64,000 bases of DNA from a virus: IMG/VR virus record IMGVR_UViG_3300034061_002899. One strand, written 5' to 3'. A model generated the notes under the pieces. The model had not been told where the DNA came from. It did no database searches and saw only the letters and a list, made by a program, of their open reading frames with translations. Both the position numbers and the translations under genes were made by a program. This document shows positions 14,546 to 56,866 of this stretch, in pieces. Within the stretch, counting starts at the first letter, position 1. Every line of letters starts with the position of its first letter.

Positions 14546-14820
14546 AATACTATACTTTTTACCGTGAAAATAATATCTTTACTGATATTGAAACAGATCC
14601 TATTGTAAAGAGATTTGCAGATACAAAAATTAGATGGTATCAACATTATATGATTGGTATTAGTACCTATGTCAAAGATAGCGACCAATATTTTAGTCTG
14701 CTTACACTAAAATACGGTGACGATATGATTCAATCAGTATGCAAAGATTATTCTCCTGTACCCGGAGTAGACTATATGCCTAAGCGTGATGCTAACAAAT
14801 ATAAACGCTTATTACCATGA
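14542..14820 (+). CDS. Hypothetical protein
   Basis: ATGA coupling. Confidence 0.7.
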   Translation: MKYYTFYRENNIFTDIETDPIVKRFADTKIRWYQHYMIGISTYVKDSDQYFSLLTLKYGDDMIQSVCKDYSPVPGVDYMPKRDANKYKRLLP

Positions 14821-15182
14821 TTACTTCAATTTTACTCTTACTACTATTATTGCAATTAAAACATTGGTATATTGATTTTGTTAATCAATCAAACATTGAA
14901 ATTGCTAGTAAAGGTATTTATGGTGATAGTGTCGGCCTTAACCACAGTATTAAGCATGGTATAGGAACGTTGTTATGTATTACTATTGTTACCGGTACAA
15001 ACTACATTGCATTTGCTAGTATTCTAGCATTGTTAGATTGTATGATTCACTATCACATTGATTGGATTAAATCTAATTATGGTTGCAAAGATACAAATCA
15101 AAAGTCATTTTGGGTTGATCTTGGGTTAGATCAGATGATGCACCAACTAACTTATATATTAATTGCTTATCTTGTTATTTGA
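14817..15182 (+). CDS. DUF3307-like membrane protein
   Basis: KHWYIDF..Q, HSIKH, HYHIDWIK, GLDQMMH. Confidence 0.75.
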   Translation: MITSILLLLLLLQLKHWYIDFVNQSNIEIASKGIYGDSVGLNHSIKHGIGTLLCITIVTGTNYIAFASILALLDCMIHYHIDWIKSNYGCKDTNQKSFWVDLGLDQMMHQLTYILIAYLVI

Positions 15183-15904
15183 GATAACATTCGTGCTTCA
15201 GGAATACGTGTCTTTGTATTCTTACTTCCCAATAATACAACTGTTCTAATACCCTGCGCTGTATCTAACATCATAACAATACAGCCTCCTGCTTTACTAA
15301 TAAATCCTGTCTTACTAACTAAAAAGTTATAACCATTACCAACTAAACTGTTTGTGTTTCTAAACTCAACAGATTTCTTTTTGTTTAATGACCAACGAAC
15401 AGCATCCATATTACTTGCCGCAACAATCAATGGGTAACCACTTGCGGCAAATACTAACTTAATTAAATCTTCGGCTGTGCTTACGTTAGTATGATATCTA
15501 CCAGTTGGATCAGTAAAAACACTATTGTTCATTTGTAGTAATATTGCTTTGGTATTCATTGCTTCTACACAACTTTTATATCCACCGGGATAATAGTCAC
15601 ATAACATTTTTGCGGCATTGTTATCACTCTTTACAATTGCTAAGTCAATTAATGTTTCTCTTGTTAATTGTTTATTGTATAACTTCTTTGGGATAATTTC
15701 TGTTAGTGATTGACCACTATCTAATACAACCATTGCTGTCATTAGTTTAGTAATACTGGCTATGCTACGAACTTCAGTAGTGTTTGATCCTTCAAGTATC
15801 TTTCCATTGCTATCAGCTACTAACCATGCTTGTGCTGTTAATGATTGATTAGCATATGCTGAACTGGTTACCAATACTAAGATTGCTATCAGTTTTTTAA
15901 TCAT
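15167..15904 (-). CDS. D-alanyl-D-alanine peptidase, peptidase S11 (PBP7/PbpG-like)
   Basis: Signal peptide; IASITKLMT (SxxK), SDN (SxN), KTGF (KTG). Confidence 0.92.
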   Translation of the reverse strand: MIKKLIAILVLVTSSAYANQSLTAQAWLVADSNGKILEGSNTTEVRSIASITKLMTAMVVLDSGQSLTEIIPKKLYNKQLTRETLIDLAIVKSDNNAAKMLCDYYPGGYKSCVEAMNTKAILLQMNNSVFTDPTGRYHTNVSTAEDLIKLVFAASGYPLIVAASNMDAVRWSLNKKKSVEFRNTNSLVGNGYNFLVSKTGFISKAGGCIVMMLDTAQGIRTVVLLGSKNTKTRIPEARMLSQITR

Positions 15905-16227
15905 ATGTTTGGTCCTTTCTTATAAGGCACGAGCTTCATGTCGTCCCCTAATCCTACAATGCATGATAGATTATTTTTAGTTGCTACTATAGTCCAATTA
16001 TTGTCAACTGGATTTATCCAAACACTGACTATGGATTTGACGGCATCACCTGCTTTACCCGTCATGACGGGCATCTCTTTGTACTTTTCTCTTAAGGATT
16101 TGAATAACTCAGATGAATCATAGCAAGGTAAATCTATTTCAACCTTGTCCTTAATTTCTTGCGAGTAGGAATTACTTGCTAGTAGCCCTGTACACACCAT
16201 CCCAATCAGTAGGCAAATTGTTTTCAC
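15901..16227 (-). CDS. Secreted hypothetical protein
   Basis: Signal peptide; two Cys in the mature part; 56-nt overlap with cyclase 3' end. Confidence 0.7.
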   Translation of the reverse strand: MKTICLLIGMVCTGLLASNSYSQEIKDKVEIDLPCYDSSELFKSLREKYKEMPVMTGKAGDAVKSIVSVWINPVDNNWTIVATKNNLSCIVGLGDDMKLVPYKKGPNI

Positions 16228-18223
16228 GTAGTTCTCCTATTCGTGCTATCATTATATCATAATAGTGGTCCATGTGCGAATCAAATTCACCCTTTAATTG
16301 ATCTATCATGTGTAATGCTTGATCCCATTTCTGTTCCCTATAGTAATCTATCATCAAGTCATGTAATTCACGTGCTGATAGATATTCTGCCATGCTGTTT
16401 GGATCAGTCTTTAATGGCGTGTAGATATTTAATCCGATTGTTTTACCCTTCACAGCAATACAATCTAGTTCTAAGGTAAAGATTTCATCCTTAACTTGTT
16501 CATTGGTATTAGGACCAATGATACATAACACACCATAACCCTTAGTCTGTCCTTCTAATCTAGCCGCAGTAGAAACGCTGTCGCCTAACACATCATAGCC
16601 AAACTTAGTCTTAGCACCTATATTGCCAATCAATGTTTCACCTGTGTTAACACCTGCACCCATGCCAACTGGTGGACGGCCATTGGAGGTCAACTCTTTA
16701 TTGAATTCTTCAATAGCATCAATCATTTGCATGGCAGTATTAACAGCAGTTACCGCATGTTTACTATCATCTAATGGAGCACCATGCACATGCAAACTTG
16801 CGTCACCAATAAACTTAATTAATGTACCATCATTCTTTAATACCGGTACACTTAATGCGGTCATGTAGTCATTCATAATCTGTGTCAAGCCTTCAACATC
16901 ATCACCAAAACTTTCACCTAAACTAGTGAAGCCACGCAAGTCAGTCATAACAATAGATAGTTCACGCTTCTCACCGCCTAATTTAATTAAGCTAGGATCT
17001 TTTTGTAATCGTTCAACGATTGTTGGATTAACATAACTACCAAATTGTTTCTTAATCTGTTGCTTCTGTAAGAATTCACTTACAAACTTAACAGTATAAG
17101 CATGAAGATAAACCAAACCAATGCCACCAACAGGGGCGGTAATATCATAGAGCCATAGATTGGATGTGAATAGATATGACGCAACATAATGACTAGAAGC
17201 AAGAACAATAATAACTGGGATAAAAGCATATGTCCACCTTGATAAAAATATAACTAATAAACCTAACGCTAGTATAGCGATAAGTTCTACACCGTCTGCA
17301 TAATCAGGTCTTTCAATAACAACTTTGTTAAACATTGTACCTATTACACTTGCTTGAACATCATGTGGCCATACACTACCTTTACTTGTTGGTACGGGGT
17401 TGTTTAGTCCACTTGCTGTCAATCCTACAATAACAATAGCACCATCAAAGTCTTTTGGTAGTTCCATTAATGAAACTGATTTACTTTGTTGACTGTAATC
17501 AATCCAAATGCGACCCAAGTTATCTGTAGTGATAGGGCCGAACTTAGGTATACGCATTTTCTCTACACCGTTCTCATTTAGTTTAACTTGAAATGTTGTA
17601 TCGCCGGCTGCCGCTCTTAATACTTCCATACTTAAACTTGGATAGAGTTTACCATCTACACTAGCAATCAATGGAATACGTCTATTGACACCATCAATCT
17701 CCGGTAATGTATTAACTGTACCAACACCATAAGCACTGTTTTCTAATACAGGCACGTTAGCAATGATGCCAGGATATTGAACGATTTGATCTAACCATTC
17801 AGGGGCTAATACTGCCGCACCTGGATTACGGGGTATGTTTTTTGTTTTGTCGCTTGGTACATTGGGAAGTATAACAGGATACTGTTTCATTGTACTTGCC
17901 AATTTAGTGTCTTGACCACTTCTATCAGTATCGGGCATTAATACATTAAAGACAACAAGTCCGGCGTTACGACTATATAGGTCTTCTATTATCTTTGCGT
18001 ATTCACCTCTAGGTAATGGCCATTGACCATACTTAGTAAGTGTTGCTTCATCTATATTGACTGTATAGATATTATTTTCTGTTGGGGCTTTGTTAGTGAT
18101 AAGAGTATCAAAATAGCGTAAGCGTACAGATTCTACGAAAGAAGGATCAGCAATTCTAATAGATAGCACAAATGCTAAGGTAAGAATAGCGGTCCAGGGA
18201 CTAAGTATAATTTTCTTAAACAT
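16172..18223 (-). CDS. CHASE2-domain class III adenylate/guanylate cyclase
   Basis: N-terminal TM, CHASE2 (IDEATL..YGQWPLPR, DGVNRR), 3 TM, TDLRGFT, KFIGDA, YDVLGDSVSTAARLEG, WDGV. Confidence 0.93.
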   Translation of the reverse strand: MFKKIILSPWTAILTLAFVLSIRIADPSFVESVRLRYFDTLITNKAPTENNIYTVNIDEATLTKYGQWPLPRGEYAKIIEDLYSRNAGLVVFNVLMPDTDRSGQDTKLASTMKQYPVILPNVPSDKTKNIPRNPGAAVLAPEWLDQIVQYPGIIANVPVLENSAYGVGTVNTLPEIDGVNRRIPLIASVDGKLYPSLSMEVLRAAAGDTTFQVKLNENGVEKMRIPKFGPITTDNLGRIWIDYSQQSKSVSLMELPKDFDGAIVIVGLTASGLNNPVPTSKGSVWPHDVQASVIGTMFNKVVIERPDYADGVELIAILALGLLVIFLSRWTYAFIPVIIVLASSHYVASYLFTSNLWLYDITAPVGGIGLVYLHAYTVKFVSEFLQKQQIKKQFGSYVNPTIVERLQKDPSLIKLGGEKRELSIVMTDLRGFTSLGESFGDDVEGLTQIMNDYMTALSVPVLKNDGTLIKFIGDASLHVHGAPLDDSKHAVTAVNTAMQMIDAIEEFNKELTSNGRPPVGMGAGVNTGETLIGNIGAKTKFGYDVLGDSVSTAARLEGQTKGYGVLCIIGPNTNEQVKDEIFTLELDCIAVKGKTIGLNIYTPLKTDPNSMAEYLSARELHDLMIDYYREQKWDQALHMIDQLKGEFDSHMDHYYDIMIARIGELRENNLPTDWDGVYRATSK

Positions 18224-18232
18224 TATTTAACC

Positions 18233-19654
18233 TTAAGGAATTGGTGTTATTGTATCAACGAAGGTACTATTTGCATCTACTAGTGATGAGCTGCCAGCGT
18301 TTATGTAAGTTACATTGGCACTATTCATAGTTGTTGTAATAGGTGTAAGATTAAGTACTGCATCAGTGTAGTTGATTGTATTATAATTAATAGTAATTCC
18401 ATTAACCACATATGTGCCGGTTAATGTGCCATCAGATGGCATCTTAAAAATAAACATATTATAATTATTTCCAGTTTGTTGATTTGCTTGCCCACCTATA
18501 GTCATAATACCTGAACTATCTAATACTATTGATAGTCCGTAAAGACCTACTATGCCTGCGGTAGAACTTCCTGAAAATACTCGTTGCCATTGCAATACAC
18601 CATTAGTATCATATTTTGCAATTAATCCGTTGTATATGTTTAATAGGCCAGTCACATACACATTTCCTGAACTATCTGTTGTAATACTTTGGTAAAAAAC
18701 AGAGCCGGTTGCATCATATAATTGTTTTTGCCATAATAGAGTGCCGGAAGTGTTATATTTTGCTATCATACCCACATTCAATGATGAGAATACATACGTA
18801 TTGCCACACACAAATATATTATTTGAACTATCAATTGCTATATCGTTAAATTGATTGCTGTTGGTACCTACATTATTAGCTAAACCTTTTTGCCATTGCA
18901 ATACCCCGGCACTATTATGTTTAACCAATACGGCTGTGTTATTACCACCAGTAACAGTACTACCTGCAATATATACACTACCGGTTGAATCAAGTGCCAC
19001 TGCATTAGAATTGTCGTTTGTGCCGATTGTTTCTATATCTCTTGCCCATATAATTGAACCAGATGTGTTATATTTTACTAATGTCATGCTAGTTGGTTGC
19101 GATCCAGTAGTAGGTCCTATAACTACATCTCCGGTAACATAAAAATTACTGGTACTTTTTTCTACAACTAAGCCGGTGCCAAATCGGGGCACAAATTTTG
19201 TAAACCCATATCCCAAGTCCTTCTGCCACTGTAATGAACCACTAGAATTATATTTTGCTATTTGAAAGGTACAATACTTAGTAGACGACAACCAATTTTT
19301 TGCAATAACTCCAGAAATATATACATTATTTGAACTGTCTGTGTCTATGGAATAGAATATATTATAATCACTACCGCTACTAGTAGACAAACTTTTTTGC
19401 CATGCAACCGTTTTATCTGAATTAAACTTTACAGTAACTCCTTGCGACCCTGTAGTATTATTAGTGCCGCCGCCGGTTACATATAAGTTATCAGAACTAT
19501 CATATGCTAATGCACTTGTCCCGTAAATACTAGAATCCATATTGTTAGGAGCACTTAAATTACTACCAAAAGTACGAGCATAATAGGGTGTGGGAGGCGG
19601 TGGCGGCGCCTCTATTTTTATTCCGGGTTCTAGTTTTAATCCTTCTAGTTGCAT
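18233..19654 (-). CDS. Beta-propeller repeat protein (SBBP-like), probable virion appendage
   Basis: Repeated DSSxNxYxxG..AKYNxxGxLxWQK units; N-terminal polyproline linker; GATAAATA late promoter at 19676-19683. Confidence 0.75.
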   Translation of the reverse strand: MQLEGLKLEPGIKIEAPPPPPTPYYARTFGSNLSAPNNMDSSIYGTSALAYDSSDNLYVTGGGTNNTTGSQGVTVKFNSDKTVAWQKSLSTSSGSDYNIFYSIDTDSSNNVYISGVIAKNWLSSTKYCTFQIAKYNSSGSLQWQKDLGYGFTKFVPRFGTGLVVEKSTSNFYVTGDVVIGPTTGSQPTSMTLVKYNTSGSIIWARDIETIGTNDNSNAVALDSTGSVYIAGSTVTGGNNTAVLVKHNSAGVLQWQKGLANNVGTNSNQFNDIAIDSSNNIFVCGNTYVFSSLNVGMIAKYNTSGTLLWQKQLYDATGSVFYQSITTDSSGNVYVTGLLNIYNGLIAKYDTNGVLQWQRVFSGSSTAGIVGLYGLSIVLDSSGIMTIGGQANQQTGNNYNMFIFKMPSDGTLTGTYVVNGITINYNTINYTDAVLNLTPITTTMNSANVTYINAGSSSLVDANSTFVDTITPIP

Positions 19655-19683
19655 AATAATCCTAATATAGTATAGTATTTATC

Positions 19684-20151
19684 TTATTGGCCCTGTTGAA
19701 CTGACAATTTGGCGCACCCACCGACTATTGCACAGTTGAAGTTTAATGTATATGATTGTTGAGTAGATCCACTTTGACTCAAACTTAACCCGGTTGGTAA
19801 TCCAGTTAATGTTACATTTGCTTGATGACCAGCACTTCCCTGCTGTAATATATCTACATCTTTATATCCACCAATTAAGTTTAATATGATAGAATGATTC
19901 CCGTTGTCTTTTTGTTGTAACAGAACTGTGTTATTACTATTGTTTACATTGGCTTGTATTGACTTATTGCCGCCGGTACTACGCTGTTCAATGTTAACAG
20001 TATTGAAAGAACCAGCACTATAATAGTTTATATAGTTTGTGCCGTTTCCTATTTGTTCTACCGTTAATGTATTGAAATTTCCCACTTGCTCAATATAAAC
20101 TTGAGCAAATGCTGAACTTGAGGATAGTAGTAATATTAATATTTGTTTCAT
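19684..20151 (-). CDS. Curlin-repeat secreted protein (CsgA/CsgB-like)
   Basis: Signal peptide; IEQVGNFN, VEQIGNGTN, LQQKDNGN, LQQGSAGH repeats. Confidence 0.65.
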   Translation of the reverse strand: MKQILILLLSSSSAFAQVYIEQVGNFNTLTVEQIGNGTNYINYYSAGSFNTVNIEQRSTGGNKSIQANVNNSNNTVLLQQKDNGNHSIILNLIGGYKDVDILQQGSAGHQANVTLTGLPTGLSLSQSGSTQQSYTLNFNCAIVGGCAKLSVQQGQ

Positions 20152-20321
20152 TTGTTGTTTTTAACAAACCAGTAATGTTTTTGTAATTCTCTGAGTACTT
20201 CACTTTCTGGTTGTTTGAATTGTCTTGCTGCCATTTCAACAAAGTCTAGCCAACGAAAAGCAGATTGGTCATTCCCTTGACACCATTGCTGATACATTAT
20301 TTGTAATTCTCTAGCCGTCAT
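20148..20321 (-). CDS. Small hypothetical protein (57 aa, not in ORF track)
   Basis: MTARELQIMYQQWCQG...HYWFVKNNK; ATGA overlaps with both neighbours. Confidence 0.7.
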   Translation of the reverse strand: MTARELQIMYQQWCQGNDQSAFRWLDFVEMAARQFKQPESEVLRELQKHYWFVKNNK

Positions 20322-21406
20322 TTTTTTCTTAATCCTGTGTTTTGTTTTATGAAAACTATGTTGCCACCGGGCTGACCATCACCTAGTAGTTCACTAGCAA
20401 TAGTATCATTGTGTACAATGGTAACTAATGTATTTGACATGAAGCCTTGTGTTTTTACTTCAGCATAATGTTCGTTTTCACTATTACGATATGCTATACC
20501 TCTACCTCTTGCAGGTAATTCACCTTCACTCTTTTCCCATAAGATACAAACAGTAGTTGTAGCATTGCAGTTTGGATCTGGTTTATAACTATTAGCCGCT
20601 ATAATCTTTGCTTGTTCTTCAGCACTTTGTTTTTTAACTACATTGGTTAATCTATTATTTTGTTCTTCTTCTAGTTCCTGTTGTTCTTTTTTACTTTTAC
20701 CATTTTGATTATTAACTGCTTTAACAATTTCCATTGGCTTTACAATAATCAAATTGTTTGTTAGTTTTGCCTCGACTGTATTCATAACTGCAGGCACTGT
20801 TGGTGATAGACTAGCACTAGCAACATATGTACCATGAAAGGCTTGATCCAATATAACTTTACCTGCTAATGTTTCTACTTCAATACTTCCAACTTTACAT
20901 TTATTTTCTTCTAATTCGTAATCTTTTACTTTTTCATTTTCTTTACAACTTGGAACTAGAACTATCAACGACTGTCCTGCTTCATCAACAGTCATTGTAA
21001 AATCTGTACCACGAACGGCGATACTTGCTGTAGGTGTTTTGATTGCTACCTGCTGTGCATTTGTTTTTGATATTTGTCCACTAGCATAACGAACTGTACC
21101 CATACCAACTTTAAGTGCTAATTTACCGGCATCACTTTTATTAGGATCAAAAACAAAATCGTCTATTAGTAGACGACTGTTTTCTGTTATTTTTACTTTA
21201 GTATCATCCTTGAAGGATAGTTGTACATTTCCGTTCCTAGTAGTGTATATGTCGTTACTTTCAATACCAGCACCTTTATTTCCTACTACTTTATTTTTAC
21301 CGCGAGTTATTTCACCGGGGACACCGGTTGATTCTGATACATTTCCTATGCTTGCCCAAGTACTAATACTTGTAAGCAAGAATAAGAATAATACGAACTT
21401 ACGCAT
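20318..21406 (-). CDS. FecR-domain periplasmic protein
   Basis: Signal peptide; FKDDTKVKITENSRLLID, GTVRYASG, IKTPTASIAVRGTDF. Confidence 0.88.
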   Translation of the reverse strand: MRKFVLFLFLLTSISTWASIGNVSESTGVPGEITRGKNKVVGNKGAGIESNDIYTTRNGNVQLSFKDDTKVKITENSRLLIDDFVFDPNKSDAGKLALKVGMGTVRYASGQISKTNAQQVAIKTPTASIAVRGTDFTMTVDEAGQSLIVLVPSCKENEKVKDYELEENKCKVGSIEVETLAGKVILDQAFHGTYVASASLSPTVPAVMNTVEAKLTNNLIIVKPMEIVKAVNNQNGKSKKEQQELEEEQNNRLTNVVKKQSAEEQAKIIAANSYKPDPNCNATTTVCILWEKSEGELPARGRGIAYRNSENEHYAEVKTQGFMSNTLVTIVHNDTIASELLGDGQPGGNIVFIKQNTGLRKK

Positions 21407-21407
21407 T

Positions 21408-22175
21408 TTATCTTGCTACTGCTGTTTTTGGATTTGTAATTGTGCCAGCACTAGTTGTGCGTACAGTAATAGTATTATTGTTACCATTGGCTTTGATATC
21501 AACCGTGGTGTCATTAGTACCTTGCTGTTGAGTTACAACACTATTAGTGTTACCTTGAATAACTTTTTTCAAATTATGACCGTTCGCACCGCTAGCATCA
21601 TTTTGTTCAACATCAAGTTTGTTACTATCACCTGTTAATGTGATATCACTTATACCGTTAGTACTTTTTAGATCCTTAGTAACTTCATTGATATCACCTG
21701 TAATAGTTAATGTACTTAATATATCGTTACCAATAATATTTTGAATAACAGTATTGTCATTACCAGTAATGGTTTCAGTAATAATGTTACGTAGATTACT
21801 TGTATTAGTTATATCACCAATAGTTAACTTAGTCTTGTTATTATTTCCAGTAACTGTACTTGTGTATTCATTGTTGTTACCTCTAATATTATATTGACCT
21901 AAGTTGTTATCACCTTTTTGAATTATAGCAACAATGTTACTATTACCGTTAACTGTAGCATAGTTAGTGTTGCTCGGTGTTGCGTTGGTAACACCACCGA
22001 CACTGTTAGTGCCGCCAGTTTGTTCTATTGTAACAGTATTGGTATTACCAATCTGTTCAATATAAACTTTATTTGGACCGGTAGCGGCATTTAATCCTTG
22101 TGCCATACTAGTTCCACTTAGCAATGATAATGCTAATATTGAAAGCACCTTCTTATAATTTTTATAATGCTTCAT
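21408..22175 (-). CDS. Curlin-repeat secreted protein (CsgA/CsgB-like)
   Basis: Signal peptide; many (Q/x)xGxxN repeats: IEQIGNTN, IEQTGGTN, IQKGDNN, IQGNTN, QQQGTN. Confidence 0.75.
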   Translation of the reverse strand: MKHYKNYKKVLSILALSLLSGTSMAQGLNAATGPNKVYIEQIGNTNTVTIEQTGGTNSVGGVTNATPSNTNYATVNGNSNIVAIIQKGDNNLGQYNIRGNNNEYTSTVTGNNNKTKLTIGDITNTSNLRNIITETITGNDNTVIQNIIGNDILSTLTITGDINEVTKDLKSTNGISDITLTGDSNKLDVEQNDASGANGHNLKKVIQGNTNSVVTQQQGTNDTTVDIKANGNNNTITVRTTSAGTITNPKTAVAR

Positions 22176-22257
22176 TAAAATACAGTAATCAGTTATTATT
22201 CCTGGTTACGCTCCTTGGGTTATAACCCTAAAATGTTTACCTACTATCTCATTATGG

Positions 22258-22292
22258 ATATCTGTTAGACTGTAGGGTCATCTAACAGATAT
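22258..22292. other. Perfect 12-bp inverted repeat between csgG and the curlin gene
   Basis: ATATCTGTTAGA / TCTAACAGATAT. Confidence 0.7.
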
Positions 22293-22295
22293 ATT

Positions 22296-23270
22296 TTATT
22301 CTTTTACTTCTTCCTTAAGTCTAAATCCGTCTTTAATTTTGTCCCAGTAACTTCTCTTTTCGTTTCCTTCAGTAGCTTTTCCGACGTTGGGCTTAGATGG
22401 TGAGGTTGTAACTTGTGGGCTGTCTTTAGATGGGGTTTTCTCTTGAACCAACTCATTTTTCTTTTCCTCCTTTTTAAAATTCCAATGTCCTTTACGTGCG
22501 CCTTCACGAATCGTATCTACAACGGCTGCTTGAATAGCGAGACTAGTTGCTTTGTTTATACTTTCATTAATACTTGCGCCAATTTCTGCTTCAACTGCAT
22601 TAGTACCACTACTGGTAAAACGCAGTACACCTGCTTTGTCCATATAACTTAATACAGTTTTAGTAACTGTTACACTTGTTAATACTTCACCTGTACTAAC
22701 ACTGACTGTTCTTAAGTTAACAGTAACAGTATCACTTTGGTATTGAGTACTAGTGCCAATGCCCAATACTCTTACACCAGACCCGCCTGTCAATGTATTT
22801 GAATCATATCCAATAATTCCACCTTCAACTAATATACCAGCAAAAATCATTGGGGGTAGTGGTTTAGCATCACGACCTTGATATTGTTCACGTGCTTGGC
22901 GTATCATCTGTCTTTCTTTGATAATATTTTCTAATCCACCACGTTCTAATACAGTAAACCAACGAGCATCACCTACATCTTGTAATGCTTTAATCAAGTA
23001 ACTATCAGCACCCTGTGTTACTGCTGAACTTAAGCTAGCTATATTAGCCAATGACTTGCGTTGTCCTGTCTTATCAGCAAATCCATATACTGCAATAGTA
23101 ATAGGACCATTTAATGGGGGCAATAACTTATTGTCATCCTTTTTCATGTAAACATTTTGCTCAATGATAGGTTCATCAAATTGTTCACCAACAACAACGT
23201 TGCGAGTGGCACTACTAAGAGCACACCCTGATAACATTACAGCAAGTAATAATAGTAGTAGTTTATTCAT
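22296..23270 (-). CDS. csgG: Curli secretion pore lipoprotein CsgG
   Basis: Lipobox LSGC; VYGFADKTGQRK, SSAVTQG, WFTVLERGGLENIIKERQMIR, EGGIIGYDSN. Confidence 0.92.
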   Translation of the reverse strand: MNKLLLLLLAVMLSGCALSSATRNVVVGEQFDEPIIEQNVYMKKDDNKLLPPLNGPITIAVYGFADKTGQRKSLANIASLSSAVTQGADSYLIKALQDVGDARWFTVLERGGLENIIKERQMIRQAREQYQGRDAKPLPPMIFAGILVEGGIIGYDSNTLTGGSGVRVLGIGTSTQYQSDTVTVNLRTVSVSTGEVLTSVTVTKTVLSYMDKAGVLRFTSSGTNAVEAEIGASINESINKATSLAIQAAVVDTIREGARKGHWNFKKEEKKNELVQEKTPSKDSPQVTTSPSKPNVGKATEGNEKRSYWDKIKDGFRLKEEVKE

Positions 23271-23752
23271 TAGAAGTAAAACGTCCCCGCTGGTACTTTC
23301 ATTGTAGTTGTTTGCGATGGATTACTGTTATTTGTAATTGTGATAATGATTAACCCGTTATCACTTCCATCACCTAATTTCCAAGTGATACTATTGCCAC
23401 CTAAATCAGGTATAGATCCACATATTACTCCTTTTGTGGTACATGTTGATCCTTCTCCAAACATACTATCGGTCAATTGTTTTGCTAATTGACTGTAAAT
23501 TCTTGCTTCTAAGTTAGCTAAAAACTTAGCCTGAGGAGTGTTTAATGCTTCACTTTCAGCTTTCGCCTTTAAGGTGTCTGCAAGTGCTTTATTTTTATCT
23601 TTTTGTAAATCTTCTAACTGTTTTATTGTTAGGATATGGCTGCTATAACCCTGTCCACTGAAGGACGGGCTGTTAAATTGATGCTGTAATTCCGCAGAAT
23701 ATGCTGAAATAGTGAGCATCGTTAGGGTACTTATTGCTATACCTCTTATCAT
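23270..23752 (-). CDS. csgF: Curli assembly protein CsgF
   Basis: Signal peptide, then AELQHQFNSPSFSG; LEARIYSQLAKQL; adjacent to csgG. Confidence 0.85.
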   Translation of the reverse strand: MIRGIAISTLTMLTISAYSAELQHQFNSPSFSGQGYSSHILTIKQLEDLQKDKNKALADTLKAKAESEALNTPQAKFLANLEARIYSQLAKQLTDSMFGEGSTCTTKGVICGSIPDLGGNSITWKLGDGSDNGLIIITITNNSNPSQTTTMKVPAGTFYF

Positions 23753-23845
23753 TGTCTGCTCCGATAAATATAATAATACTCATATATTTAGTTGATTTGG
23801 ATCAAAAATATAGCATAATACATAAGAATAACAAGGGGAGCAATT

Positions 23846-24127
23846 ATGGGAGAAGTTTTTAAGATTATAGGTGATTTGGGATTTCCAATTGCTGTTGCAT
23901 TAGCTGGTGGCTATTTTGTTTATTTGACAATAAAATTGTTGCTAGCAGGAGTTTTGAGTTCCATAAAAGGCATGGCTGGTATCATTACAGCACTTGATAA
24001 CCGTGTAAAAACGATGAACCATGACGTTGTTCGTATTGATACAATCGTTAGTAATGCATTGGGTTTACGTCCTGACGTAGATAGAATTGCACGTGCTGAT
24101 GGTAAAAATGATGCTAGGAGAGATTGA
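23846..24127 (+). CDS. Small membrane protein (holin/YvrJ-like), paralogue of 24346..24684
   Basis: LGFPIAVALAGGYFVYL TM helix followed by coiled coil LDNRVKTMNHDVVRI. Confidence 0.7.
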   Translation: MGEVFKIIGDLGFPIAVALAGGYFVYLTIKLLLAGVLSSIKGMAGIITALDNRVKTMNHDVVRIDTIVSNALGLRPDVDRIARADGKNDARRD

Positions 24128-24342
24128 TGCTTTACGTTGATTATAACTGGGATTTAAGTCCTACGTTGATGATTCCGGATGAAGAATTGAACACCGACCG
24201 GTTGCAATGGAAAAGGGGAGATTACTGGAAAGTAGTAGAAAATTCAAAAGGTAGAAAGATGCTTATAAAGGTCGATGAATTAGAAGCATTTTTGTTAGCG
24301 GGAACTACCGAAAACATTGATAACAACAAGAAAAGAGAGTAA
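24127..24342 (+). CDS. Hypothetical protein
   Basis: ORF between the paralogues. Confidence 0.65.
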   Translation: MLYVDYNWDLSPTLMIPDEELNTDRLQWKRGDYWKVVENSKGRKMLIKVDELEAFLLAGTTENIDNNKKRE

Positions 24343-24345
24343 AAT

Positions 24346-24684
24346 ATGGATGTAGTAACACTAATTAATAAGTATGGTTTCCCTATCGTTATGGCGGTGG
24401 GTATGGGCTTCATTATCAAATACGTTTGGGAATGGGCCACAAAAGAAGTTAAGCCTGTTATCAAAGATGCTGAAGCTGTATTGATAGCATTGATTGACCG
24501 TATCAGAATGTTAGATAATGACTTGATACGATTGAATCAAAAAGTTAATACAGTATTACATTTGCGTGGCAAGACTATTGAACATGAACGAGTTATTGCT
24601 GAAAAAGAAATCAATAAACCTTTTGTTGAGTTCGTTACAAAAGAAATTACTGAAGCTAATAAAGATACAACTACTAAAAAATGA
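24346..24684 (+). CDS. Small membrane protein (holin/YvrJ-like)
   Basis: YGFPIVMAVGMGFII TM helix; LIDRIRMLDNDLIRL. Confidence 0.7.
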   Translation: MDVVTLINKYGFPIVMAVGMGFIIKYVWEWATKEVKPVIKDAEAVLIALIDRIRMLDNDLIRLNQKVNTVLHLRGKTIEHERVIAEKEINKPFVEFVTKEITEANKDTTTKK

Positions 24685-51358: not shown

Positions 51359-51434
51359 TGGAGCGGGATAAGAGGCTCGAACTCTCGACCTATACCTTGG
51401 CAAGGTATCGCTCTACCAACTGAGCTAATCCCGC
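51359..51434 (-). tRNA. tRNA-Gly(GCC)
   Basis: Cloverleaf; ATACC-TTGCCAA-GGTAT; CCA end. Confidence 0.97.
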
Positions 51435-51436
51435 AT

Positions 51437-51586
51437 TTAACTTGGTATCATTTTTGGCATATAAGGAACTGCTCTAGGTCCATGACGTTGTTGTAATAGC
51501 ATACGTGCTTCTTCAGCATTGTTTGCTCCTACTCTGTCTGTGAACTCTTTACCGTTCACTCTTACTGTTGCTTCAAATAATTTCAT
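51437..51586 (-). CDS. Small hypothetical protein (49 aa)
   Basis: MKLFEATVRV...GANNAEEARMLLQQRHG; between tRNAs. Confidence 0.65.
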   Translation of the reverse strand: MKLFEATVRVNGKEFTDRVGANNAEEARMLLQQRHGPRAVPYMPKMIPS

Positions 51587-51592
51587 AATGAT

Positions 51593-51668
51593 TGGTGGGT
51601 CGTGACAGGCTCGAACTGCCGACATTCTGCGTGTAAGGCAGACGCTCTACCAACTGAGCTAACGACCC
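51593..51668 (-). tRNA. tRNA-Val(TAC)
   Basis: TCTGC-CTTACAC-GCAGA; CCA. Confidence 0.97.
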
Positions 51669-51678
51669 TTTATTTTAT

Positions 51679-51864
51679 TTAACCACCTTGTTCACTGTCT
51701 TTAACATTTCCCCAATCAATGACTGGCTTTTCTACATTCATGTCAGGGAGAGGAGGAGGAACGTATCGTTCTTTTGGTGGCTTCTTACCGAATATAGCAT
51801 CATGCTTATCGGCTAATTCCTCTAAACTTATACTAAATGGTCTTGGTCTACTACCTTTACTCAT
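51679..51864 (-). CDS. Hypothetical protein
   Basis: MSKGSRPRP; AAGGA RBS. Confidence 0.75.
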   Translation of the reverse strand: MSKGSRPRPFSISLEELADKHDAIFGKKPPKERYVPPPLPDMNVEKPVIDWGNVKDSEQGG

Positions 51865-51886
51865 TTGATTTCCTTTAAATTAAACT

Positions 51887-51963
51887 TGGTCGGAGTACAA
51901 GGATTCGAACCTTGGACCCCCTGGTCCCAAACCAGGTGCGCTACCAGACTGCGCCACACTCCG
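51887..51963 (-). tRNA. tRNA-Pro(TGG)
   Basis: CCTGG-TTTGGGA-CCAGG; CCA. Confidence 0.97.
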
Positions 51964-51990
51964 AATTATTTATAGCCCGATGTTATCGAA

Positions 51991-52626
51991 TCACTTTTTC
52001 CACAAGTGACTCACATCATCAGGCATTTTGTATTCATTTCGATATTGCAATATAGTAATATCATCATACTGATCTTTACCATTCCAAGGTGCACCTAATG
52101 CTAATGTAACCTTACATTCATCTGATGTGTTAATCATCCCGTGAGGGAAGCCACCATCCATTACAAATGCATGTTCTATATCAGGAGCAGATACTTTTCC
52201 TTTATCAGTAATCCAGTATAGTGTACTAGTATTACCTTGCAAAACAATTCTTATCTTATGTTGTAACGTGTTCAACTCATGGGGACTACAATCAATATGT
52301 TCGTTGTTTGCCCCACCTGGTTTTGTTATCAACGCCATTACTCTAGCTTTACAGCCTATCCAGGGAAAAATATAATCTTCAAACCAATCAACGATTACTG
52401 CAGGAGTATGACTAACCCAACAAAAGTCACCCGGTTGATTATTACTAGTTCCGTCGACACCTATCCCGCCTTTAGTGTTTAAAGGAAACATTTGTGTATG
52501 TCTATAGTTGTCCCAAAAACTTAACTTACTATCAAGTGCTAAAATTTCTTTGGAGGCTTTTTTCTTATCTAAGATGGGTATACCATCTATTCTAGCAAAC
52601 AACAAATTATCGGCTGGTTTAATCAT
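51991..52626 (-). CDS. 2OG-Fe(II) oxygenase-like (Asp/Asn beta-hydroxylase type)
   Basis: EHIDC (HxD), PHGMIN. Confidence 0.65.
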   Translation of the reverse strand: MIKPADNLLFARIDGIPILDKKKASKEILALDSKLSFWDNYRHTQMFPLNTKGGIGVDGTSNNQPGDFCWVSHTPAVIVDWFEDYIFPWIGCKARVMALITKPGGANNEHIDCSPHELNTLQHKIRIVLQGNTSTLYWITDKGKVSAPDIEHAFVMDGGFPHGMINTSDECKVTLALGAPWNGKDQYDDITILQYRNEYKMPDDVSHLWKK

Positions 52627-52635
52627 ATAATATAT

Positions 52636-53163
52636 TTATGTTAATAGAAACACTGGATCAATATCTGTAGCAACCGTCATACAGATTCTTGGAACTGTAT
52701 TCATATTTGTATGCACTCTATGTGGTTCTTGAACCCTAATTACTGTAGGTCTAATGATTTCAACCTCTGCTACCTTAGTAGGTATTGAATTATCTTTCAA
52801 TAAGTAATAAGGTATTCCATTCTGTTGAAAAAACATAGTATACTCACCACCTGAATAAAATTCAGTGCGTGAGCCTTCGCAATTCAAAATAGGAATATTG
52901 ATTCGACATTGTGATTTAAGATTACTCTTATAGTCAATATGAACTTTAGAATGTTCTTGTAGGAAGGTTACGTACAACGCAACTTTTTTTACCTTTAGAT
53001 TATAGTCTGCAAACGCAGACAATATTTCAGGACAATATTCAAGGTAGTCCTTATCTAGTAAGGAGAACCCTACTCTCACCGATGAATGATGTTCAAGAAA
53101 CTTTTTGGTCTTTTCTTGAATGACCTCAAAGTTTTGTATTTCAATCTGATTAAAATATTTCAT
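52636..53163 (-). CDS. 2OG-Fe(II) oxygenase-like protein
   Basis: VHIDY, RINIPILNC, PHRV, PRI. Confidence 0.65.
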   Translation of the reverse strand: MKYFNQIEIQNFEVIQEKTKKFLEHHSSVRVGFSLLDKDYLEYCPEILSAFADYNLKVKKVALYVTFLQEHSKVHIDYKSNLKSQCRINIPILNCEGSRTEFYSGGEYTMFFQQNGIPYYLLKDNSIPTKVAEVEIIRPTVIRVQEPHRVHTNMNTVPRICMTVATDIDPVFLLT

Positions 53164-53166
53164 ATT

Positions 53167-53241
53167 TGGATGCGGGTGACAGATTCGAACTGCCGATGCA
53201 CCTGGCTTATGAGACCGGTGTGGTGACCAACCCTACCCGCG
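53167..53241 (-). tRNA. Atypical initiator-like tRNA-Met(CAT)
   Basis: C1:A72 mismatch, CTCATAA loop, canonical T arm, CCA; poor D arm and bulged anticodon stem. Confidence 0.7.
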
Positions 53242-53244
53242 TAA

Positions 53245-53313
53245 TTTATAAATGTATTTCTTTTTCACTTACAGAGCCAGTCTTATCAGCTGGGTATGAA
53301 ACACATTTATAAA
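53245..53313 (-). ncRNA. Stem-enclosed small RNA cassette A
   Basis: 16-bp inverted repeat (one G.U pair) closing a 37-nt insert. Confidence 0.5.
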
Positions 53314-53314
53314 G

Positions 53315-53505
53315 TGAGACTGCTACTACACCACATAGCCCAGTCTCTGAGTTGTTACACTGTCCACTTCTTCAATCTAGACGGTTAGAAGTCCGCCTTT
53401 GTGATTTTTCAAGTCGCTTTAAACAAGCCTTGCAGTAGATCCAATGCACTGTGCTATTAAGGTATTAGCAATTACCTAACTCTATTACGCTGAGTTAACG
53501 CGGGT
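53315..53505 (-). ncRNA. Pseudoknot-rich ncRNA, paralogue of 57860-58055
   Basis: H-type pseudoknots AGGTA/TACCT+TGCTA/TAGCA and GGCGG/CCGTC+ACTTCT/AGAAGT; shared 3' motif. Confidence 0.6.
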
Positions 53506-53509
53506 TTAT

Positions 53510-53585
53510 TGGTGGAGGATACCGGGATCGAACCGATGACCTACTGGTTGCAAACCAGTCGCTCTCCCAACTGAGCTAATCCCCC
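53510..53585 (-). tRNA. tRNA-Ala(TGC)
   Basis: G3:U70; TTTGCAA loop; CCA. Confidence 0.97.
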
Positions 53586-53972
53586 TCATCTCAGTAAGCC
53601 TCTACTTCCTCGTCCACTACCTTTATTCTTGGCAGCATATGATGCAGTTTGGCTATGACAGTTTGGACACAACAGCCTTACATTTTCAGGCATATTATTA
53701 CCAGCATTGCCATCTATATGATCTAACTGTAATGCTAACGGCACATTGTTATGTATTCCGTTATTACTACAACAAGCACATTTATATCCTGTTAGTTTTG
53801 TGATAATCTTATTCAGTGTCCGTCTATCTTTTACCTCACCTAAGTAAAATTTAGGCATAGTTAAATCTTTAAAAGTAAAATCAGCCTGACATTGATTGTC
53901 GCAAAACTTATTTTTATTATTACGCTTTACAGTGTTTTCTCTGTTACAGTGTAGGCAGTTAAATGTATTCAT
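53586..53972 (-). CDS. HNH endonuclease
   Basis: CACC, LQLDHIDGNAGNN...LCPNCHSQT. Confidence 0.9.
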   Translation of the reverse strand: MNTFNCLHCNRENTVKRNNKNKFCDNQCQADFTFKDLTMPKFYLGEVKDRRTLNKIITKLTGYKCACCSNNGIHNNVPLALQLDHIDGNAGNNMPENVRLLCPNCHSQTASYAAKNKGSGRGSRGLLR

Positions 53973-54051
53973 AGTATAATTCTTTGTAGTCCGTATACTA
54001 TTTATGCAAACGCTCTACATTTTGATATTTACCTACACCCCCAATATTCTT

Positions 54052-54128
54052 TGGTGCCCTAGGAGAGACTCGAACTCTCAGTTTACGGCTTCTAAGACCG
54101 CTGTGTCTACCAATTTCACCACCAGGGC
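54052..54128 (-). tRNA. tRNA-Leu(TAG) lacking the long variable arm
   Basis: Leu-type D arm GTGAAATTGGTAGACAC; CTTAGAA loop; 77 nt; CCA. Confidence 0.9.
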
Positions 54129-54188
54129 ATTCATTTCAATACGTATTGTAACAGAGAACTATTTATCTGTCTACTGTTTTGGATAACT

Positions 54189-54262
54189 TGGAGCGGGGTA
54201 ACAGAATCGAACTGTCCGCATCAGATTGGAAATCTGAGGTATTACCACTATACGAACCCCGC
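54189..54262 (-). tRNA. tRNA-Gly(TCC)
   Basis: TCAGA-TTTCCAA-TCTGA; U73-CCA. Confidence 0.96.
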
Positions 54263-55030
54263 TTATATATATTTTCTTTCACTTAACCAGGGCACAATAA
54301 CCTCATCAACAAATTCTTTATGCATCTCTGTTGTGGGGTGATGTGGACCTGTAAGAATATTCCATTCTTCAGGATTAGACTCTGCGTATTTTGAATTTTT
54401 TGATATCCAATTATACTGACTAGTTATAGGAAGATACTGCTCTGTATCAATTTGTTTATATAAGTAATCTATTTCAGGATGTGTTATATTTTCAGGCAGA
54501 ACAATATTATCGTCCATATAATTAGTAAAAAAATATTTAATATTTTTTGATTTTAGAAACCATTGTGTTTTCAATATATGCTCAATCGAATATATACTTG
54601 ATCCTATTTCATCATGGAACATTTTATAATATGTCATCGCTTCTTTATTATTTTCTGCCCAATTGGTATTAAGTATTACCCAATTTTTTGTACTATCTTT
54701 TACAAAACCAGTTGGATTTTCCATCCATCCATTATGTACTTTATCAGATACAAAATGTAATAAACCAGGTGATGTACATCTAAAGTCATGTCTATTAGAA
54801 CCACTCCACATAACACCTACTAGTATATCTTCTGGTTTATGTGTCTTTAGTGCTTCTAGTACACCATATATTATACTTCTACTTATAAGTCCGTTACCCT
54901 GACTACCCATTGCATAACTCTTATGATCATAGTCAGTTAATTCTTTAGATAAATGTATAGGCCACGCTTTATTTGCATAACTAATACATTCACTAAAACT
55001 ACAACCTGAGGTGATTAATAATTTTTTCAT
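54263..55030 (-). CDS. SGNH/GDSL-like protein
   Basis: SGCSFS, GNGLI.R, MWSGSNR, HHPTTEMH. Confidence 0.7.
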   Translation of the reverse strand: MKKLLITSGCSFSECISYANKAWPIHLSKELTDYDHKSYAMGSQGNGLISRSIIYGVLEALKTHKPEDILVGVMWSGSNRHDFRCTSPGLLHFVSDKVHNGWMENPTGFVKDSTKNWVILNTNWAENNKEAMTYYKMFHDEIGSSIYSIEHILKTQWFLKSKNIKYFFTNYMDDNIVLPENITHPEIDYLYKQIDTEQYLPITSQYNWISKNSKYAESNPEEWNILTGPHHPTTEMHKEFVDEVIVPWLSERKYI

Positions 55031-55040
55031 AAATATACTT

Positions 55041-55208
55041 ATGCACATTTACGATGCTATTACAAATTCCGGATTACACATCCATCTTTCAATGATGGAA
55101 GATGAATCCTTTTACATTATGGTACATGATCTTGTGAACTTCACTATGCAAATGAAGTTCTTTAGTAGCGTTGAGCCTGCTAGAGCATTTATTCAATCAC
55201 TAGAATAA
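55041..55208 (+). CDS. Small hypothetical protein
   Basis: ATAAATA late-type promoter directly upstream. Confidence 0.55.
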   Translation: MHIYDAITNSGLHIHLSMMEDESFYIMVHDLVNFTMQMKFFSSVEPARAFIQSLE

Positions 55209-55210
55209 TT

Positions 55211-55284
55211 TGGCATCCCCCCAAGGATTCGAACCTTGACTAACGGTTTTGGAGACCGGTATGCTGCCATTACATTAGGGAGAT
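55211..55284 (-). tRNA. tRNA-Trp(CCA)
   Basis: CCGGT-CTCCAAA-ACCGT; G73-CCA; overlaps 3' end of upstream CDS. Confidence 0.93.
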
Positions 55285-55815
55285 ATTTAATTCTTTTAAT
55301 TTGTCTAAGTAATGTGATTGACCTTTACTGACCATTGAACGCCAGTCATTTAGTGAATCATCATTGGCTCCGTCACTAACAAACTTGTAACATAGAAACT
55401 CTACTTTATGTTTCCTGCATACTTTCGCAATAGCGTATGCTTCCATATCTACTACATCAGCAGGAATTAATAAGTTACTATCTGTGACAAAGTTATCACC
55501 TGTACTACAAGTTAATCCATCACCATTATCAATGATGATAGTATCTTCAAATGGTGTTTGACCTGGTAGACTACCTAACTCACAGCACATCATATCACGT
55601 TGAATAAACTTTGACACTTGATGGAATCCTGACTTAACAGTAACTCCACCTGCTGTACCAAAGTTGATAACACGATCAGGGTTGTACTTGGCAATCAACT
55701 CAGCCGCAGTCATTGCGGCATTTACTTTTCCTACACCTGTGTAAAATACTTTCATACTGAAAGCCATGTCAGGTGCTTCTTCTTTCAATGCAATTAATAT
55801 TAAATCTTTTTTCAT
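55270..55815 (-). CDS. mtnN: MTA/SAH nucleosidase (PNP_UDP_1 family)
   Basis: TGVGKVNAA, NFGTAG, TGDNFV, VDMEAYA, KFVSDGA. Confidence 0.85.
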   Translation of the reverse strand: MKKDLILIALKEEAPDMAFSMKVFYTGVGKVNAAMTAAELIAKYNPDRVINFGTAGGVTVKSGFHQVSKFIQRDMMCCELGSLPGQTPFEDTIIIDNGDGLTCSTGDNFVTDSNLLIPADVVDMEAYAIAKVCRKHKVEFLCYKFVSDGANDDSLNDWRSMVSKGQSHYLDKLKELNISLM

Positions 55816-55824
55816 AAATTCTCT

Positions 55825-55916
55825 TGGTGGAAACGGTGAGATTCGAACTCACGGGACGCATTAACATCCGACAGTTTTCAAGACTGTTGCAATAAACCGG
55901 GCTCTGCCACGCTTCC
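55825..55916 (-). tRNA. tRNA-Ser(TGA)
   Basis: ACAGT-CTTGAAA-ACTGT; long variable arm; CCA. Confidence 0.95.
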
Positions 55917-56104
55917 TATTTTATTAGTATATCTACGTTTTGACCTTTAGCGGCAGGTTCTATTTTTCCTGTATTGTCGTAAAGGTATTGTATGACTTCT
56001 AAAACTGTTTTATTTGTCTTAGGATCTACTAGAGTACGATACTCGGTGTTGCGATATTGGTTATAAACCATATCCCAACTGTTTGTTATACTTTGTACTA
56101 TCAT
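55916..56104 (-). CDS. Hypothetical protein
   Basis: ATAAATA promoter upstream; KGQNVDI C-terminus. Confidence 0.65.
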   Translation of the reverse strand: MIVQSITNSWDMVYNQYRNTEYRTLVDPKTNKTVLEVIQYLYDNTGKIEPAAKGQNVDILIK

Positions 56105-56117
56105 ATAGTATTTATTA

Positions 56118-56212
56118 TACCATATAGAAACACACTTTTAAACCTTTCTTCAGCGTTTAGTCGCTATCTCCCTTACTAATCGGGCGTAGGGTAAATGTGT
56201 TTTTATATGGTA
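56118..56212 (-). ncRNA. Stem-enclosed small RNA cassette B
   Basis: 17-bp inverted repeat (1 mismatch) including the tRNA-Lys ACCA end; internal hairpins. Confidence 0.5.
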
Positions 56213-56281
56213 GGAGTGTTCGGGAACGATCCGAATTTTACCGGTTAAAAGCCGGTTACTTCACCTTAAAGTTTCACTCCC
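56208..56281 (-). tRNA. Atypical tRNA-Lys(TTT)
   Basis: ACCGG-CTTTTAA-CCGGT; A8, T-loop ATCGTTC; CCA. Confidence 0.8.
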
Positions 56282-56341
56282 ATAAGTCGTAATGATTGAT
56301 TTTACGTGCCAATCATAGACCTACGGAAGTCTATGATGACA

Positions 56342-56362
56342 CTATCGCTTACTGCGTTTCAT
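56342..56362 (-). other. Mini-ORF MKRSKR-amber followed by hairpin/pseudoknot (56286-56342)
   Basis: AAAGGAAACGAC-ATG AAA CGC AGT AAG CGA TAG; GTGTCA/TGGCAC and TCATAGAC/GTCTATGA stems. Confidence 0.5.
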
Positions 56363-56385
56363 GTCGTTTCCTTTGTTAAAAAATT

Positions 56386-56461
56386 TGGAGTGGGTGACAG
56401 GGGTCGAACCTGCATGTCACGGATTTGCAATCCGCTACCTAACCATTCAGTACACACCCAC
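56386..56461 (-). tRNA. tRNA-Cys(GCA)
   Basis: GCGGA-TTGCAAA-TCCGT; U73-CCA. Confidence 0.95.
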
Positions 56462-56466
56462 ATATT

Positions 56467-56668
56467 GCTCTGGCATCCCCCGGCGGTAATTATAGAGTAT
56501 CAAGACATGACGCTATCATACCCATCACACACTCCTTCCACCCGCTTCCCGAAACAGGGACCGTTCTCGCATTGCCAGCGGCCTTTGGGTTTAAAGACTA
56601 CCACCCGTAGCTGTCACGCTACTTCTCATCCTGTGGGTCACAGTATCCGGAGACACCCGGAACGTTCT
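56467..56668 (-). ncRNA. GC-rich ~200-nt structured RNA of unknown class
   Basis: Hairpins TCCGG/CCGGA, CTGTG/CACAG, GTAGC/GCTAC; long-range GGTGGTAGT/ATTACCGCC; CTGGCA/TGCCAG pseudoknot. Confidence 0.6.
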
Positions 56669-56682
56669 TTTATAAATACAGT

Positions 56683-56865: not shown

Positions 56866-56866
56866 T

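Follow-up and report, generated by a model that had tools for sequence, protein, structure and literature searches.

Curli-type (type VIII) secretion systems (T8SS) have been described in marine podo- and myo-pelagiphages, where a gene cluster encodes one or two proteins labelled 'HK', CsgF, CsgG, CsgA/B, FecR, often a second CsgA/B, and an adenylate cyclase (AC) (PMC9599517, mSystems 2022). Expression of these viral modules in marine metatranscriptomes, an alphaproteobacterial origin and transfer between virus families have been reported, and superinfection defence, aggregation, 'sibling capture' and import have been raised as possible roles (PMC9599517). CsgC, CsgD and CsgE are not reported for viral modules, FecR, HK and AC are stated not to lie within bacterial T8SS operons, and CHASE2 goes unmentioned (PMC9599517). 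Two further papers discuss a 'curli operon' without naming FecR or a cyclase (PMC7029224, PMC9004378). Here we analyze a locus of this kind in a 64,000-nt stretch of viral DNA, IMG/VR record IMGVR_UViG_3300034061_002899; the whole stretch is referred to as the window. All members of the published viral T8SS module are present at positions 15167–24684 of the window.

The module encodes a CsgG pore and CsgF, two Sec-exported curlin-repeat proteins, a secreted FecR-domain protein, an inner-membrane CHASE2 cyclase with adenine-type residues, and two small membrane/coiled-coil proteins (Table 1). We think it likely that the locus represents the viral type VIII secretion ('curli') module known from marine pelagiphages, residing here in a large, tRNA-rich lake-water phage, and that it serves fibre export together with FecR/CHASE2-gated production of cyclic AMP (cAMP). 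During infection, the host would receive a CsgE-less curli apparatus from the phage, and through it beta-solenoid fibre subunits would reach the cell surface. FecR and the CHASE2 domain would act together as a periplasmic sensor pair, as in the curli-free bacterial neighbours described below, and this sensor would set the cAMP output. An earlier reading of the DNA from its letters alone (the original prediction) had suggested that the combination is a surface-sensing circuit of the phage, a role that we regard as conjectural. The combination itself is no discovery: FecR and an adenylate cyclase are already conserved parts of the viral T8SS and have been discussed with the same ideas of superinfection and aggregation (PMC9599517). 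The core of the module was published in 2022; what the window adds is a carrier lineage, a habitat and some accessory genes.

Gene content and order in related viral loci

CsgG at 62–86% identity to that of the window was found in 22 IMG/VR contigs. The order csgF, csgG, curlin, FecR, curlin, cyclase holds in all 22 as far as each contig reaches. The same gene set lies on seven contigs binned into metagenome-assembled genomes (MAGs) of six unrelated taxa; because these contigs also carry other genes of the window phage, we read them as phage contigs. When a phage collection was searched with the window cyclase and with CsgG, both probes returned the same six records, namely four Melnitz strains and two HTVC008M records; each probe gave one or two unrelated partial matches in addition. 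The Melnitz and HTVC008M annotations list, in order, CsgF, CsgG, a curlin-repeat protein, a FecR-domain protein, a second curlin and an adenylate cyclase, the FecR-domain and second curlin annotations being found in the Melnitz records only. That pore, fibre subunits, FecR and CHASE2 cyclase are kept together had been proposed in the original prediction, and they are indeed kept together, in order, wherever a locus reaches far enough, in the 22 IMG/VR contigs, in Melnitz, in HTVC008M and in the seven phage-like MAG contigs. Gene order in relatives had been set beforehand as a test of that proposal, and the order proved to be conserved. A search of the phage collection for near-identical DNA of the region gave no match, and a search for distant similarity that used the tail region yielded a single short match.

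The marine pelagiphage module, as found in HTVC023P-type podophages and in pelagimyophages, consists of the same families in the same csgF-to-cyclase order, with identities of 36–58% for Melnitz and HTVC008M. The window differs from it in several respects. Here the small gene pair points away from csgF instead of lying upstream in the same orientation. The second curlin is cut to its repeat domain, with a 57-aa open reading frame (ORF) ahead of it. A propeller gene is inserted, and genes for a 108-aa protein and a PBP7-like peptidase are appended. Finally, the phage that carries the module comes from lake water and has 26 tRNA genes.

The small gene pair, which the original prediction had left out, belongs to the module. 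The two genes are paralogues, each encoding one hydrophobic stretch and a coiled coil, and they lie within ∼3 kb of the module in 20 of 20 phage loci with enough flank. Three placements are seen: upstream in the same orientation; pointing away from csgF, as in the window; or past the cyclase on the opposite strand. By tblastn, the pair is present in exactly the same six records of the phage collection as CsgG and the cyclase. These genes are the published 'HK' genes of the viral T8SS module. The label 'histidine kinase' is nonetheless unsupported for proteins of 93 and 112 aa that have no HisKA or HATPase domains, as neither domain gave a Pfam match even at E ≤ 0.1. A profile search of the PDB yielded generic coiled coils only (E ≥ 0.02), and the Atlas clusters of the pair are virus-only and unnamed.

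The propeller, the 108-aa protein and the S11 peptidase, in contrast, are lineage-specific additions. No tblastn counterpart of the propeller was detected in any related locus, the insert being seen in the window alone, and in other relatives the same spot holds unrelated genes of 0.9–4.8 kb. The S11 peptidase follows the cyclase in three of the 11 relatives that show a cyclase (L003, L004 and L022). Given these distributions, neither gene is core. The original prediction had listed the propeller within the run, as an insert, and had taken the PBP7-like peptidase as part of the cassette that is kept together; both should be dropped from it and the small gene pair added. The peptidase carries the motifs SITK at residue 50, SDN at 93 and KTG at 198. 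Its best NCBIfam model is a D-Ala-D-Ala endopeptidase, with a score of 160.9 bits against an equivalog cut-off of 294, so we describe it as an S11, PBP7-like enzyme rather than a PbpG equivalog. For the 108-aa secreted protein we found 121 homologues, none with a Pfam family or an informative name. Its structural model has a predicted local distance difference test score (pLDDT) of 75, and the best match in a VIA search, a propeller blade at Z 6.4, is within noise. A CsgC/CsgE/CsgH-like fold for this protein was considered but gained no support: Foldseek gave nothing below E = 0.39, and CsgE, CsgC and CsgH were unlisted among the VIA matches, which by itself is not exclusionary. Only the closest relatives (L003, L004, L005 and L015) have the 57-aa ORF, at 88–91% identity.

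Pore proteins and fibre subunits

Likeness to E. coli curli (6L7A, 6LQH, 8ENQ) extends to the CsgG lipoprotein pore, the CsgF N-terminal motif and the curlin-repeat beta-solenoid subunits. Relative to that system, the window module adds FecR, the CHASE2 cyclase and the small membrane pair, and its CsgG constriction loop differs. The window CsgG covers the whole Pfam domain (Table 1) and aligns full length to E. coli CsgG structures (E = 8.6e-51, residues 2–277). It has an N-terminal lipoprotein signal, with LSGC as its lipobox. Fifteen CsgF homologues share, without variation, an N-terminal F-x-x-P-x-F-x-G motif, which lines up with the mature N-terminus of E. coli CsgF (6L7A), the region by which CsgF enters the CsgG barrel.

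Of the two curlin-repeat proteins, the 255-aa protein is kept in all related loci and, besides its Pfam match, has weak NCBIfam matches to CsgA/CsgB. The 155-aa protein gave no Pfam match. An alignment of its family (14 homologues) nevertheless revealed Q-x-G-x-x-N type repeats, each ∼22 residues long, and a pair of Cys residues at the C-terminus, and the family profile matches a solved Pontibacter curli subunit (8C50, E = 9e-12). Its AlphaFold model is an all-beta solenoid (pLDDT 85). The best VIA match of this model is the E. coli CsgA fibril 8ENQ (Z 14.8; root-mean-square deviation 8.6 over 109 residues), tied with generic SufD-type beta-helices. CsgA was ranked first by the VIA search only, and Foldseek against the PDB returned nothing at E ≤ 0.001. 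From profiles and models together, the window curlin proteins are predicted to be CsgA/B-type beta-solenoid subunits with a Sec signal.

The window holds a short form of the second curlin. In most relatives, this curlin domain is the C-terminus of a protein of 369–639 aa. The long forms (L005:13103-14221, L023:12906-14825 and others) have an N-terminal domain of ∼200–480 aa before the repeats, to which no family could be assigned; this domain is absent from the window and its two closest relatives.

The same pore might instead serve lysis, as has been proposed for Melnitz on the basis of modelling and synteny (PMC9004378). CsgG/CsgF would then not export fibres but form a gated pore in the outer membrane that sets the time of lysis or helps it along, in a pinholin- or secretin-like manner; the PBP7-like endopeptidase and the small membrane proteins would act with it in breaching the envelope, and the cyclase would be a timer. 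A peptidoglycan D,D-endopeptidase does lie in the same operon in the window, but it is missing from most relatives. Two small single-pass membrane proteins always accompany the module, yet they have no holin family match. Constriction-loop residues unlike those of E. coli would suit such a role, whereas the two curlin-repeat substrates with signal peptides, present in every locus, would be needless for a pure pore. On balance, we regard a lysis pore as unlikely and favor fibre export.

FecR-domain protein and CHASE2 cyclase

In the window FecR protein, Pfam finds the FecR domain alone. The protein has no hydrophobic segment apart from its N-terminal signal peptide, and no anti-sigma or transmembrane part; we therefore call it a FecR-domain protein, not a FecR anti-sigma regulator. 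It has more than 5700 metagenome homologues, with conserved motifs and a Cys pair. In the cyclase protein, the CHASE2 domain (PF05226) is bracketed by hydrophobic segments, at residues 4–22 and from 309, and the cyclase domain spans residues 420–594. The protein matches phrog_35576 over its full length (E = 1.4e-222).

Bacterial homologues give a context for this pair. A scan with the FecR alignment, using one genome per species and excluding phage-like contigs and two cassette-bearing MAGs described below, gave 69 bacterial loci. Ten of these have a full-length CHASE2 cyclase, 28–35% identical to that of the window, beside one or two FecR homologues, and no CsgG, CsgF or curlin match was found within 10 kb in any of the ten. 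In Burkholderia, a LysM-FecR protein adjoins a CHASE2 histidine kinase in an operon (PMC5192318). The original prediction had named FecR and CHASE2 cyclases as forming trans-envelope signalling clusters in bacteria. Bacterial pairs such as Burkholderia LysM-FecR with its kinase and the Sinorhizobium CHASE2 cyclases CyaD1/D2/K share with the window a secreted FecR-domain protein beside a periplasmic CHASE2 domain with cytoplasmic output. They differ in having no CsgG/F or curlin genes, and their cyclases have Thr/Ser and Asn at the positions discussed below. Since the window protein has the FecR domain alone and its bacterial counterparts neighbour CHASE2 proteins, the most fitting interpretation of the two is a periplasmic sensor pair taken over from bacteria rather than an iron regulator. 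'FecR' and 'adenylate cyclase' of the viral modules would be better understood as a FecR and CHASE2 sensor pair like those that bacteria have apart from curli genes, which points away from iron regulation. Binding between FecR and CHASE2 in the window phage is inferred from gene neighbourhood; a complex prediction with CHASE2 residues 22–325 and FecR residues 19–235, both supplied as alignments, scored 0.00, a result that counts neither for nor against binding. As a compact and portable set of eight genes, the module would make a convenient model for identifying ligands of CHASE2 domains.

These neighbourhoods also bear on the suggestion that nutrients or cofactors, such as iron compounds signalled via FecR, enter through the pore and aid replication in nutrient-poor water (PMC7029224, PMC9599517). 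In its favor, viral modules lack a CsgE gate (PMC9599517). But the FecR protein is a signal peptide plus a FecR domain with no anti-sigma part, its bacterial homologues partner CHASE2 cyclases, and import leaves the conserved curlin substrates unexplained. We consider this role very unlikely, and export of fibres again gives the better account.

Alignment to solved class III cyclases and a motif survey showed that the window cyclase (PF00211) retains both metal-binding Asp residues together with the Arg and the Lys/Asp pair for adenine. The position of the catalytic Asn is occupied by Ser (V-S-T-A-A-R) in 15 of the 16 phage copies read, comprising the window, Melnitz and 13 others. Ser-bearing phage cyclases extend to as little as ∼41% identity with the window cyclase; a single phage copy, L008, keeps Asn. 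All bacterial cyclases read, Caulobacteraceae included, keep Asn and have Thr/Ser at the second specificity position. To judge from these copies, the Ser-for-Asn change is a conserved trait of the viral cyclase clade and not decay. Ser stands in for the catalytic Asn in almost every phage copy, and for this reason the cAMP output is probably low or tightly gated. In L008 (14718-17614), the cyclase is split into parts of 583 and 94 aa around a 268-aa ORF, which may be a mobile-gene insertion.

A more specific role can be sketched for the pair, although we hold it to be rather unlikely in this form. FecR and the CHASE2 cyclase could be a phage-borne trans-envelope sensor of curli export or of envelope state, for instance of attack by a second phage, that produces an attenuated cyclic-nucleotide signal. 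The Ser variant and the small proteins would then be phage adaptations.

Several observations weigh against fibre export and gated cAMP as the functions of the module. At the positions aligned to the E. coli CsgG constriction loop, with its residues Tyr51/Asn55/Phe56, the window CsgG has Leu/Ser/Leu, so its pore properties may differ. The constriction-loop residues are a trait of the E. coli pore and not of the CsgG family. Overall, CsgF is only weakly similar to the solved E. coli protein (E = 0.4). In mammalian adenylyl cyclase, a Ser-for-Asn change lowers turnover; the phage cyclase could therefore be weak or make another product. Proteins that bind cyclic nucleoside monophosphates (PF00027) were not found in five related viral contigs rated 19–46% complete. 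A scan for sigma-70 promoters gave 46 sites versus 46.8 expected, no better than chance. The sequence TATAAATA occurs eight times versus 12 expected, with none in the region upstream of csgF. No clumping of Melnitz-infected cells was seen (Buchholz et al., PMC9004378).

Curli and sensor genes do come together in some bacteria. In two Caulobacteraceae MAGs (L033 and L034), a single co-oriented block comprises csgF, csgG, two curlin genes, FecR and a CHASE2 cyclase, whose proteins are 29–44% identical to those of the window. The flanks are bacterial, with genes for acyl-CoA dehydrogenase, methylmalonyl-CoA mutase, glycosyltransferases and a TonB-dependent receptor. Compared with the window, this cassette lacks the small 'HK' pair, its two curlin genes precede FecR, and its cyclase is of the bacterial type (Thr, Asn). 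The two MAGs have only the 6-kb cassette in common (L033:7136-13090 and L034:7152-13090, 87% DNA identity). With flanks that do not align and a lower GC content (0.516 versus 0.549 and 0.560 for the flanks), the cassette looks horizontally acquired, and the pattern suggests that it is mobile. It is also rare: with FecR as the probe, it was detected in 2 of 301 genomes sampled from the family and 1 of 401 sampled from the class. In a tree of cyclases, which has long branches and a midpoint root, the L033/L034 pair falls in the bacterial clade (86/85 support) instead of among the phage copies. The occurrence of the whole cassette in these MAGs qualifies the published claim that FecR and AC lie outside bacterial T8SS operons (PMC9599517). 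Together, the conserved Ser-for-Asn change and this bacterial cassette provide starting points for work on the identity of the signal and the origin of the module.

In L033, a 197-aa PycTM gene (L033:13533-14126, plus strand; Pfam 87.6 bits; PADLOC PycTM E = 9.6e-18) lies 440 bp after the cyclase on the same strand. Searches for PycTM homologues in the window, in the other loci and in four other bacterial genomes with FecR and CHASE2 cyclases gave none, and the L033 neighbour is accordingly treated as a single case. For the trans-envelope sensor sketched above, this rare bacterial cassette with one copy beside PycTM hints that such sensors can feed conflict-type effectors. One could go further and take the phage cyclase as a Pycsar-related conflict enzyme whose product serves defence or counter-defence (abortive infection, phage exclusion) instead of host cAMP regulation; we find this highly improbable. 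The cyclase domain matches PADLOC PycC models (E = 1e-11 for the window, 2.2e-28 for the Caulobacteraceae copy), but such matches are expected for a domain common to all class III cyclases, and the specificity residues are the adenine pair Lys/Asp. The PycTM gene of L033, for its part, lies outside the cassette common to the two MAGs, and the other genomes and loci just mentioned have none. The window module was also considered as a Pycsar defence system as a whole and rejected, given PycC matches that are generic and the lack of a PycTM homologue in the window and related phage loci.

Locus layout and carrier phage

Ten co-oriented minus-strand genes occupy 15167–23752, with plus-strand genes on either side, and the GC skew changes sign over the block. 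All ten gene calls of the original prediction exist at the coordinates it gave, and Pfam confirmed the domains it named. Hidden Markov model searches detected CsgG, CsgF, Curlin_rpt (in the 255-aa protein), FecR, CHASE2 and Guanylate_cyc. The cyclase gene and the gene for the 108-aa secreted protein overlap by 56 nt, the latter and the S11 gene overlap by 4 nt, and the csgF/csgG and FecR/57-aa ORF/curlin junctions overlap or abut, which is consistent with one operon. Exported proteins have signal-peptide-like N-termini. Two further ORFs border on the module. A DUF3307 membrane protein (phrog_2470) encoded at 14817–15182 on the plus strand converges on the S11 gene, so that the 3′ ends share 16 nt; a terminator-like hairpin between these ends was not found. 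A 72-aa ORF with a TTG start at 24124–24342 (plus strand) lies between the two small membrane genes and has no family match.

Table 1. Genes of the viral T8SS module and accessory genes in the window
Feature	Position	Strand	Evidence
Small membrane/coiled-coil protein, 112 aa (published 'HK' gene)	24346..24684	+	phrog_18771 E = 1.4e-28; paralogue of 93-aa protein
Small single-pass membrane and coiled-coil protein, 93 aa (second 'HK'-labelled gene)	23846..24127	+	phrog_18771 E = 2.3e-29; divergent from csgF
CsgF-like protein, 160 aa	23270..23752	-	Pfam CsgF (PF10614) 28.0 bits (cut-off 25.8)
CsgG lipoprotein, outer-membrane pore subunit, 324 aa	22296..23270	-	Pfam CsgG (PF03783) 180.7 bits (cut-off 20.8), whole domain
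Curlin-repeat protein 1, 255 aa, signal peptide	21408..22175	-	Pfam Curlin_rpt (PF07012) 24.0 bits (cut-off 20.7)
Secreted FecR-domain protein, 362 aa	20318..21406	-	Pfam FecR 41.4 bits (residues 52-150); phrog_37870
57-aa ORF without signal peptide	20148..20321	-	No family match
Curlin-repeat protein 2, short form, 155 aa	19684..20151	-	Family profile vs 8C50 E = 9e-12
SBBP beta-propeller protein, 473 aa, without signal peptide	18233..19654	-	Pfam SBBP 43.3 bits
Membrane CHASE2 sensor fused to class III nucleotide cyclase, 683 aa	16172..18223	-	Pfam CHASE2 133.3 bits (residues 16-323) and Guanylate_cyc 63.1 bits; phrog_35576
Secreted accessory protein, 108 aa	15901..16227	-	Homologues in L003, L004, L006, L020
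S11 D,D-peptidase, PBP7/PbpG-like, 245 aa, accessory	15167..15904	-	Pfam Peptidase_S11 123.5 bits

The carrier is probably a lineage of tRNA-rich jumbo phages. The window has 26 tRNA genes at 51359–61181, all on the minus strand, and few PHROG matches outside the module. CheckV rates related contigs of 146–163 kb as 41–46% complete, which implies genomes of ∼350 kb, and FecR homologues are also present on contigs of 174.5, 301 and 376 kb, the one on the 174.5-kb contig being 91% identical to that of the window. One related viral contig (163 kb) has 24 of the 86 window ORFs in common and carries 19 tRNA genes. The Gp23 capsid family gave no match over the cut-off in five related contigs rated 19–46% complete. 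In the set of papers available to us, we found none linking jumbo phages to CsgG, and freshwater pelagimyophages have been reported to be without a curli operon (PMC7029224). Viral carriers of curli, FecR and cyclase genes extend beyond marine SAR11 and OM43 phages to a lake-water lineage of very large phages.

The window stretch was found nearly whole in 19 metagenome runs (lake-water or unspecified) from 17 studies, six of which runs may be the source sample. In one estuary RNA library, contigs from relatives (85–97% identity) cover parts of several module genes. These lend weak support to expression of the module in relatives; they cannot show transcription of the window phage, and the missing cover of the propeller is no evidence either way. 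One metagenome DNA contig joins 16287 to 20150 with 33 other letters, omitting the cyclase, the propeller and the second curlin; at 85% likeness, it may belong to another phage.

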